Shown: piece after piece, positions 3,800 to 4,555 of the stretch
How the letters are laid out: each line of letters opens with the position of its first letter
Numbering within the stretch: the stretch's first letter is position 1
Source of the DNA: a virus
Lineage: Duplodnaviria > Heunggongvirae > Uroviricota > Caudoviricetes
Virus record (IMG/VR): IMGVR_UViG_2537562189_000009
DNA length: 64,000 nucleotides
Reading direction: 5' to 3' (one strand)
Notes under the pieces: generated by a model
Databases searched by the model: none
The model's input: the letters and a program-made list of their open reading frames with translations, nothing else
What the model was told of the DNA's origin: nothing
Translations under genes and position numbers: made by a program

Positions 3800-4555
3800 A
3801 TGATTCACTACCACGGTGGGCCTATTACTCCTGATACGTGCGCAATGAGAGCATGGAAAGGGCGACATGCGTTTATCAGTTTTGCGCATTCAGGCCAGAT
3901 CAATCTCGCTGCTGAATACTGTCAGTCGTTCGCGCTGGACAACGGTGCATTCACCGCCTGGAAAGCAGCTGGCAAAAACAAAATCGACTGGAGCGATTAC
4001 TACGAGTTTGTTGCTCGCTGGAAGAATCACCCAGGATTCGATTTTGCCATTATCCCGGATGTTATTGATGGCGGAGAGGAGGAAAATGATGCGCTTCTGA
4101 ATGAGTGGCCTCACGGAAAACTAGCTGGCGTTCCAGTGTGGCACATGAATGAAAGTGACGAGCGATTTATTCATTTGTGCAATGAGTTTCCGCGAGTGGC
4201 TATCGGTAGTTGTGGCGACTATGACGTAAAGCGCCCAACTCTTGCGGTAGCCAGAATGAAAGACCTGATTCGTCACATTGTTGATGAGCATGGTCAGCCG
4301 GTTACGAAACTACATGGATTGCGCATGTTAAATCCGCTGATATTCACAAAATTACCCTTAGCCAGCGCAGATAGTACGAACGTCGCTCGAAACATCGGTA
4401 TTGATAAAGCCTGGTCTGGGGCTTATGCACCTGCAAGTAAAGAGACACGCTCAGCATTAATGGTAGAACGGATTGAGGCACACAATAGCCCTGGTTCTCT
4501 TGCGTATTGTGAACAACGCGACCGCTTTGAAATGCAATTGCAACTGGCAGTTTAA
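3800..4555 (+). CDS. Candidate tRNA-guanine-transglycosylase-fold protein (DpdA-like DNA 7-deazaguanine transglycosylase); otherwise hypothetical
   Basis: Motif order resembles TGT: LDNGAF (cf. LTDSGGFQ), DFAIIPDVIDGG (cf. DIVMIFDECTPY), AIGSCGD (cf. AVGGLAVGE), LASADSTNVARN (cf. DMFDCVMPTRNAR). By-eye alignment only. Confidence 0.4.
   Translation: MIHYHGGPITPDTCAMRAWKGRHAFISFAHSGQINLAAEYCQSFALDNGAFTAWKAAGKNKIDWSDYYEFVARWKNHPGFDFAIIPDVIDGGEEENDALLNEWPHGKLAGVPVWHMNESDERFIHLCNEFPRVAIGSCGDYDVKRPTLAVARMKDLIRHIVDEHGQPVTKLHGLRMLNPLIFTKLPLASADSTNVARNIGIDKAWSGAYAPASKETRSALMVERIEAHNSPGSLAYCEQRDRFEMQLQLAV

Follow-up and report, generated by a model that had tools for sequence, protein, structure and literature searches.

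The IMG/VR virus record IMGVR_UViG_2537562189_000009 (Caudoviricetes) was analyzed over a stretch of 64,000 nucleotides, hereafter the window, in which an intact open reading frame (ORF) of 251 aa with an ATG start was read from the sequence at positions 3800–4555 of the + strand. This ORF is best explained as a stand-alone (singleton) DpdA-type transglycosylase gene, whose product would be a minimal member of the phage DpdA branch of the tRNA-guanine transglycosylase (TGT) superfamily and would belong to the gamma-proteobacterial “singleton DpdA” group. The start codon is credible because it is preceded by a GGAG Shine-Dalgarno sequence (3790–3793), because the TGA stop codon of the upstream ea22-like gene (3796–3798) lies one base 5′ of the ATG, and because the MIHYHG N-terminus is kept across the family. 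The spacing within this short segment (3790–3798, +) suggests that translation of the ea22-like gene and of the 251-aa ORF may be coupled.

The sequence-only reading had picked out four motifs of this protein as standing in the order known from TGTs, and all four were located in that order on the + strand. Their conservation was assessed in a family set of 53 members, down to about 34% identity. LDNGAF (aa 46–51, 3935–3952) contains D47, the predicted general acid/base at the end of strand β3, and, four residues further on, F51, predicted to stack against the base (F or Y in 51/53 members). The second motif, DFAIIPDVIDGG (aa 81–92, 4040–4075), contains D87, which is found in 52/53 members, as is H115. 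AIGSCGD (aa 134–140, 4199–4219) follows strand β6 and aligns to ITLGGLVG of the DpdA of Enterobacteria phage 9g; its G136 is nearly invariant. The last motif, LASADSTNVARN (aa 187–198, 4358–4393), holds the predicted catalytic nucleophile, D191, at the end of strand β8, and about 60 residues lie C-terminal to it. Strand β7 carries KLHGLR (4307–4324), in which H172, the predicted partner of the nucleophile, aligns to H196 of the KVHGF motif of 9g DpdA. Since D47 and D191 are invariant and D87, H115, and G136 nearly so, the four motifs are not a product of chance; H172, S189, and S192 are likewise found in 53/53 members.

The gene is under strong purifying selection. The dN/dS ratio was about 0.02 against orthologues of 81–83% nucleotide identity, a rough figure derived from six pairs with dS near saturation, and ten key residues were all invariant in 54 full-length orthologues (D47 and D191, 54/54). 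A decaying pseudogene was rejected on the grounds of this selection.

Homology to an experimentally validated phage DpdA was detected at both the sequence and the profile level. PHROG 887 (“queuine tRNA-ribosyltransferase”) matches the ORF over its full length (E = 2.3e-103), and 9g DpdA (YP_009032326, DpdA1 type) is in the same family (E = 2e-98), as are Salmonella phage 7-11 gp32 and HK106 gp29. BLASTP aligned the ORF to 9g DpdA with 22% identity over 152 aa (E = 3e-7), while hhalign scored the 53-sequence family profile at 98.4% against 9g DpdA (E = 8.5e-15) and at 99.3% against ten 9g-type DpdAs (E = 3.2e-20, 164 columns). In the profile-profile pairing, D47, D87, H115, H172, and D191 correspond to D72, D114, H141, H196, and D215 of 9g-type DpdA, each invariant in the ten sequences; that is, the DpdA1-invariant residues are conserved in the ORF. 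D47 and F51 align to D72 and F76 of LDSGAF, and D191 to D215 of SCDSS. It should be noted that BLASTP sets D90, and not D87, opposite D114; D87 is the conserved residue of the family, but the alignment register in the D87/D90 loop is uncertain. The two proteins share the motifs LD(N/S)GAF, PxxH, K(L/V)HG, and SxDS(T/S) and the conserved D, D, H, H, D series, and both lack the CxCxxC Zn motif and a Pfam TGT match. They differ in that 9g DpdA is 317 aa long, with N- and C-terminal extensions, and is encoded within a folE-queD-gat-queC-queE cluster, whereas no synthesis genes accompany the ORF. Judged by this homology, membership in the DpdA/TGT superfamily appears nearly certain.

An AlphaFold2 model built from the family alignment (pLDDT 91.7, pTM 0.90) contains eight β/α units, with D47 at the end of strand 3 (residues 43–47), D87 after strand 4, H115 at the end of strand 5, and D191 at the end of strand 8 (residues 189–192). 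This strand-end placement is that of D95, D130, H181, and D256 in the bacterial DpdA of Salmonella Montevideo (PDB 7UI4), where D95 is the acid/base with F99 at +4, D130 and H181 read the base, and D256 is the nucleophile; the D95A and D256A mutants are inactive. D47/F51 parallels D95/F99, and D191 takes a position equivalent to D256 of bacterial DpdA and to D248 of Cap10, a protein of type IV CBASS (PDB 9NTN) whose H226/D248 pair resembles H172/D191. The proposed equivalence of D191 and D47 with D256 and D95 is one of position and motif. Among the predicted viral structures of BFVD, 30 matches were obtained at E ≤ 1e-3, and nearly all of those with a name were phage DpdA-type “queuine tRNA-ribosyltransferase” proteins; proteins of the deazaguanine-modified phages nt-1 and phiST lay just under that threshold. 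The predicted (β/α)8 barrel is most similar to TGT-type transglycosylases. Homology to 9g DpdA, fold, and conserved active-site residues together support the earlier proposal of a DpdA-like transglycosylase.

The DpdA assignment is already known and is not a new discovery, as the family was catalogued in 2019. Hutinet et al. 2019 (PMC6884629) distinguished, as their third group, 76 phages with a DpdA gene and without genes for synthesis of the base, and their Supplementary Data 1 lists SPN3UB (YP_007011024), SfI, HK106, SEN1, BTP1, and 7-11. The protein gp54 of Salmonella phage SPN3UB (YP_007011024.1, coordinates verified) is an orthologue of the ORF, with 93% identity over all 251 aa, so the ORF is orthologous to a listed member; no pathway genes were found in its own phage. 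Identity to other DpdA-only phage proteins is 68% for SfI, 36% for HK106, and 35% for 7-11 gp32; all of them fall into PHROG 887, have no preQ0 genes, and lie in temperate or accessory gene regions. The slot differs: the ORF lies past attP, at the tail-distal end of the prophage, the SfI and HK106 genes are between the recombination genes and xis/int, and the SPN3UB gene comes after the replication genes.

The statement in the sequence-only reading that no queC, queD, queE, or folE gene lies nearby holds for the whole window, where tblastn with phage 9g queries found no homolog of the four genes (best E = 0.29), and for the annotated near-identical sister prophage of E. coli JNEC-KY171, which also has none. 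The search was extended to a distance of 10 kb from related dpdA genes, where pathway genes were found at 0/80 viral loci of close relatives and 0/40 HK106-type loci. As a positive control, the same queries and thresholds were applied to 17 loci around 9g-type DpdA and detected FolE at 17/17, QueE at 16/17, QueD at 13/17, and Gat-QueC at 11/17; the absence in the singleton branches is therefore real. The only pathway link was a QueD-like gene abutting a distant homologue in Caulobacter phage DMCA and in one related contig, which is a weaker hint of DpdA function. As the phage has no preQ0-synthesis genes, any activity would need preQ0 from the host.

These results can be read together with what is known of 9g DpdA, since 9g dpdA expressed alone in E. 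coli inserts host-derived preQ0 into plasmid DNA, with dPreQ0 at 0.03–0.3% of G (PMC6884629). With homology, fold, active-site conservation, selection, and pathway absence as observations, we infer the substrate (DNA), the incoming base, the extent of modification, and the biological benefit. A DpdA-type exchange of DNA bases, fed by host preQ0 and resulting in sparse modification, is in our view moderately probable. By homology to TGT, bacterial DpdA, and 9g DpdA, the mechanism would be as follows. A target deoxyguanosine in double-stranded phage DNA would be flipped into the barrel pocket, where D191, positioned by H172, would attack C1′, releasing guanine and leaving a covalent enzyme-DNA intermediate. 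D47 would then act as general acid/base and activate N9 of the incoming 7-deazaguanine base. Because folE, queD, queE, and queC are absent from the phage, this base would have to come from the host, either as preQ0 made by FolE, QueD, QueE, and QueC of E. coli or as a closely related derivative. The modified DNA would contain dPreQ0, which might show up as dADG, at a minor share of its guanines, located in a sequence motif, and such sparse modification may give partial protection from restriction enzymes.

Several observations weigh against a DNA-modifying DpdA and are gathered here with the explanations that they would favor. Pfam, NCBIfam, PADLOC, and PDB sequence searches with the ORF returned no match. 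In Pfam there were 0 matches at E ≤ 1, PF01702 (TGT) included, so that the profile check proposed in the sequence-only reading was negative; this carries little weight, as validated 9g DpdA is likewise negative, and the same is true of 7-11 gp32 and HK106 gp29. The match of 9g DpdA in PADLOC is only marginal, and because this validated enzyme is silent in one database and marginal in the other, the negative Pfam and PADLOC scans are uninformative. Searches of PDB sequences, one with phmmer and two with profiles in hmmsearch, produced nothing but noise, and hhalign of the family profile against a single E. coli TGT sequence, which is too weak a template, gave a probability of 0.7%. Foldseek against the PDB placed tryptophan synthase alpha and other generic TIM barrels first and TGT at rank 25. 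In the sister prophage of JNEC-KY171, an unrelated 171-aa gene stands in place of the ORF and fills precisely the interval from the ea22 stop to the start codon that follows, indicating that the ORF is dispensable. The missing Pfam and NCBIfam matches, the Foldseek ranking, and the swap in the closest prophage would speak for an unrelated small TIM-barrel enzyme (aldolase- or TrpA-like) or a decaying remnant, with a coincidental likeness to the TGT motifs. This explanation has a negligible probability and is effectively already refuted by the hhalign score against validated DpdAs, the phage DpdA neighbors in BFVD, and the low dN/dS and invariant catalytic residues; it is also opposed by the abundance of the family, which comprises more than 7,800 homologous proteins at E ≤ 1e-3 (90%-clustered set) in 821 clusters at 50% identity.

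There are further points against. Bacterial DpdA is a protein of about 410 aa that needs DpdB and ATP and has four insertions, including the large, DNA-binding Ins8 of 128 residues, as well as a CXCX2CX22H Zn site; none of these is found here, and the only cysteines of the ORF are at positions 14, 41, 127, 138, and 237. The Zn site does not define phage DpdAs, however, since validated 9g DpdA is also without it. No dpd genes were found among the neighbors and the PADLOC DpdA model gave no match, which sets the ORF apart from the bacterial Dpd system. Cap10, the best structural match, binds a 7-deazaguanine-modified protein and not DNA. The gamma-proteobacterial singletons form a network cluster of their own, apart from the pathway-linked DpdAs, and Hutinet et al. 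suggested that they may have diverged functionally (PMC6884629). The DNA of phage 7-11 contained 50 dADG per million nucleotides, or about 0.02% of G, and Mycobacterium phage Orion, which also carries a singleton, showed no modification (PMC6884629). Phage 7-11, whose protein is the 35% identical relative mentioned above, is the only gamma-proteobacterial singleton carrier with a chemical DNA analysis; its level of modification is of doubtful protective value, and the base is not the expected dPreQ0. A literature search found no later paper testing the singleton clade.

The separate clustering of the singletons and the low level of modification in 7-11 would suit a diverged TGT-fold enzyme that still binds 7-deazaguanine or guanine and acts on a target other than phage DNA, such as host tRNA or a base-tagged protein as in the case of Cap10; its role might lie in counter-defence or in takeover of the host. 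The lack of linkage to preQ0 genes, found at 0/120 related viral loci compared with near-constant presence in 9g-type loci, and the position of the gene among accessory genes typical of host-interaction functions would agree with this explanation as well. We nevertheless hold it to be rather unlikely, as the sequence is far closer to validated DNA-modifying 9g DpdA, through PHROG 887 and the 99.3% hhalign score, than to anything else, and 7-deazaguanine is present in 7-11 DNA. The Zn subdomain with which TGTs handle tRNA is also missing: compared with the bacterial TGTs of E. coli and Z. mobilis (PF01702), to which no sequence-profile match is detectable, the ORF is without this subdomain and the N-terminal β-sheet lid and is about 125 residues shorter. 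As for Cap10, whose partners are the QueC-like Cap9 and a CD-NTase bearing the base at its N-terminus, the likeness is in fold only, with 9% sequence identity. Neither a Cap9/QueC-like partner nor a CD-NTase (with an N-terminal Gly-rich tag) was found in the window, in the sister prophage, or at related loci, and there was no PADLOC match; a Cap10-like role within a CBASS operon was rejected, as no partner genes are present.

A third explanation would be a DNA glycosylase-like enzyme that excises guanine or a modified guanine without replacing it, for example in DNA attack or repair. The first half-reaction of TGT and DpdA is itself a base excision via a covalent intermediate, hydrolysis could dominate when no base supply is encoded by the phage, and Endonuclease IV-like TIM barrels act on DNA. 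However, the second half-reaction requires the base-recognition residues D87 and H115 and the acid/base D47, and all three show the same degree of conservation as in 9g-type DpdA; abasic sites would also harm the phage if they arose in its own DNA. To our knowledge, there is no purely hydrolytic member of the TGT family, and we consider this explanation very improbable. A DpdA-type base exchange on phage DNA remains the reading that we prefer.

Of 5,426 complete E. coli genomes, 203 contain the gene at ≥95% identity and 204 have a match of any kind; NCBI's pipeline labels the copies “hypothetical protein”. Most often the gene is located in the early-left “ea” region, where it comes after exo/bet/gam or abc2 and lies 1–4 kb before xis/int, on the same strand. 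The contig that carries one distant family member is only 1.5 kb long and shows no neighbors. Because the replacement in JNEC-KY171 follows exact gene boundaries, the gene behaves as an exchangeable accessory cassette; a plain deletion was ruled out there, the alignment showing a clean replacement by the 171-aa gene. The replacement ORF (L001 3301–3816, equivalent to 3803–4565 of the window) matches phrog_9263/631 and shows a D...EAK pattern that recalls PD-(D/E)xK nucleases; its RefSeq annotation is frameshifted, yet the reading frame is intact. Pfam was run on ten longer family members in search of informative fusions and returned only a probable gene-call chimera with a baseplate protein and a metagenomic member, P0233. 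In the latter, a D12-class DNA adenine methyltransferase truncated just after DPPY is fused to a DpdA-like domain that lacks its first ~40 residues. This protein may have arisen by real recombination between two DNA-modification cassettes or may be an artefact of assembly, and it is a weaker hint of a role in DNA modification.

Upstream of the ORF, Pfam and PHROGs identified genes for an AntA/P22AR antirepressor (2193–2825, +), a TraR/DksA zinc finger protein (2873–3094, +), and an Ead/Ea22-like protein (3091–3798, +); downstream lie a 49-aa ORF (4566–4715, +) and a gene for a DUF551 protein (4737–5195, +), and these two neighbors recur beside relatives in other phages. The TraR/DksA, Ea22-like, and antirepressor neighbors proposed in the sequence-only reading were found as described, on the strand opposite to the structural genes; the single operon that it also proposed is indicated only by orientation and tight spacing. 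In the circular phage genome, the ant-traR-ea22-ORF251-DUF551 cluster is directly downstream of int and attP and co-oriented with them. The window begins in ynfF, the host gene interrupted by the prophage is ynfG, and the integrase is encoded outside the window, past its right end.

The 251-aa gene is probably expressed with the early-left/accessory genes. As the cluster is just past attP and downstream of int, it could be reached by read-through from pL after excision or from a promoter of its own before ant. A candidate for the latter, TTGACA-18-CATACT (1944–1973, +), was found by a consensus scan with 10/12 matches, in which the number of sites was not above the shuffled expectation. An sRNA-Xcc1-type element (Rfam RF02221; 2064–2152, +; 71 bits against a gathering score of 53) precedes ant, and a second RF02221 match (47475–47565, −) lies immediately upstream of a Bro-N/P22AR gene (46788–47432). 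Both matches are directly 5′ of antirepressor genes, which suggests a common RNA leader or regulator for the two ant genes. A hairpin with a 17-bp stem (1819–1858) separates the host ynfEFGH operon from the co-oriented accessory cluster (region 1663–1860, +), and read-through from the anaerobically induced ynfEFGH promoter into ant-traR-ea22-dpdA is conceivable.

The prophage itself is Stx (Shiga toxin)-converting, as shown by a gene for a RIP-family Shiga toxin A subunit of 318 aa (43386–44342, −; Pfam E = 5.7e-38). In the sister prophage of JNEC-KY171 the order is int, exo/bet/gam, cI/cro, replication, nin, Q, stx, lysis, and terminase, followed by an N4-gp56-type capsid, tail genes, and a 2,800-aa polyvalent protein, and this gene order indicates a 933W-like short-tailed Stx-converting phage. 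The small RNA STnc100 occurs in two tandem copies (42538–42751 and 42813–43023, −; 198 and 132 bits) just downstream of the toxin genes. In the window, the polyvalent protein (2,807 aa; 6538–14961, −) has LPD5, LPD1, MuF_C, and LPD38 domains and an HExxH-like HEWFH motif and is encoded where the structural module ends on its tail-distal side. The accessory cluster is separated from the tail module by a hok/sok toxin-antitoxin pair (5317–5641, +; sok 111 bits) and a YgiW/BOF stress-protein gene (5761–6105, +). A YadA-like adhesin gene (18239–19450) lies among the tail genes, where the sister prophage also has an annotated Ail/Lom-family gene. A C4 antisense RNA (48407–48490) and isrK (48516–48589) were found upstream of an ORF6N/P22AR antirepressor gene (47689–48354), all on the − strand; this segment (47689–48589) resembles a C4/ant immunity module of the P1 type, here carried by a lambdoid Stx phage.

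The DpdA assignment is a useful annotation for a common E. coli gene that is still labelled hypothetical and is found here in a Shiga-toxin prophage. It brings forward the central question of whether DpdA-only temperate phages use the host queuosine pathway to modify their own DNA, and that of the effect of sparse modification on restriction, on glycosylase defences that target 7-deazaguanine, and on the biology of the lysogen. For these questions an E. coli prophage is a convenient test case, with queC, queD, and queE mutants and routine induction of Stx phages. It is possible, although quite improbable, that the stand-alone DpdAs of temperate enterobacterial phages are as a class not self-protective DNA modifiers but diverged TGT-fold enzymes with a different target. 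As mimics of Cap10, for example, they might catch the CD-NTase that bears a 7-deazaguanine tag in type IV CBASS; other conceivable roles are the retargeting of host tRNA and the marking of DNA, of the host or of competitors, in the lysogen. If this were true, they would form a new class of phage factor that uses deazaguanine chemistry for counter-defence or host manipulation.
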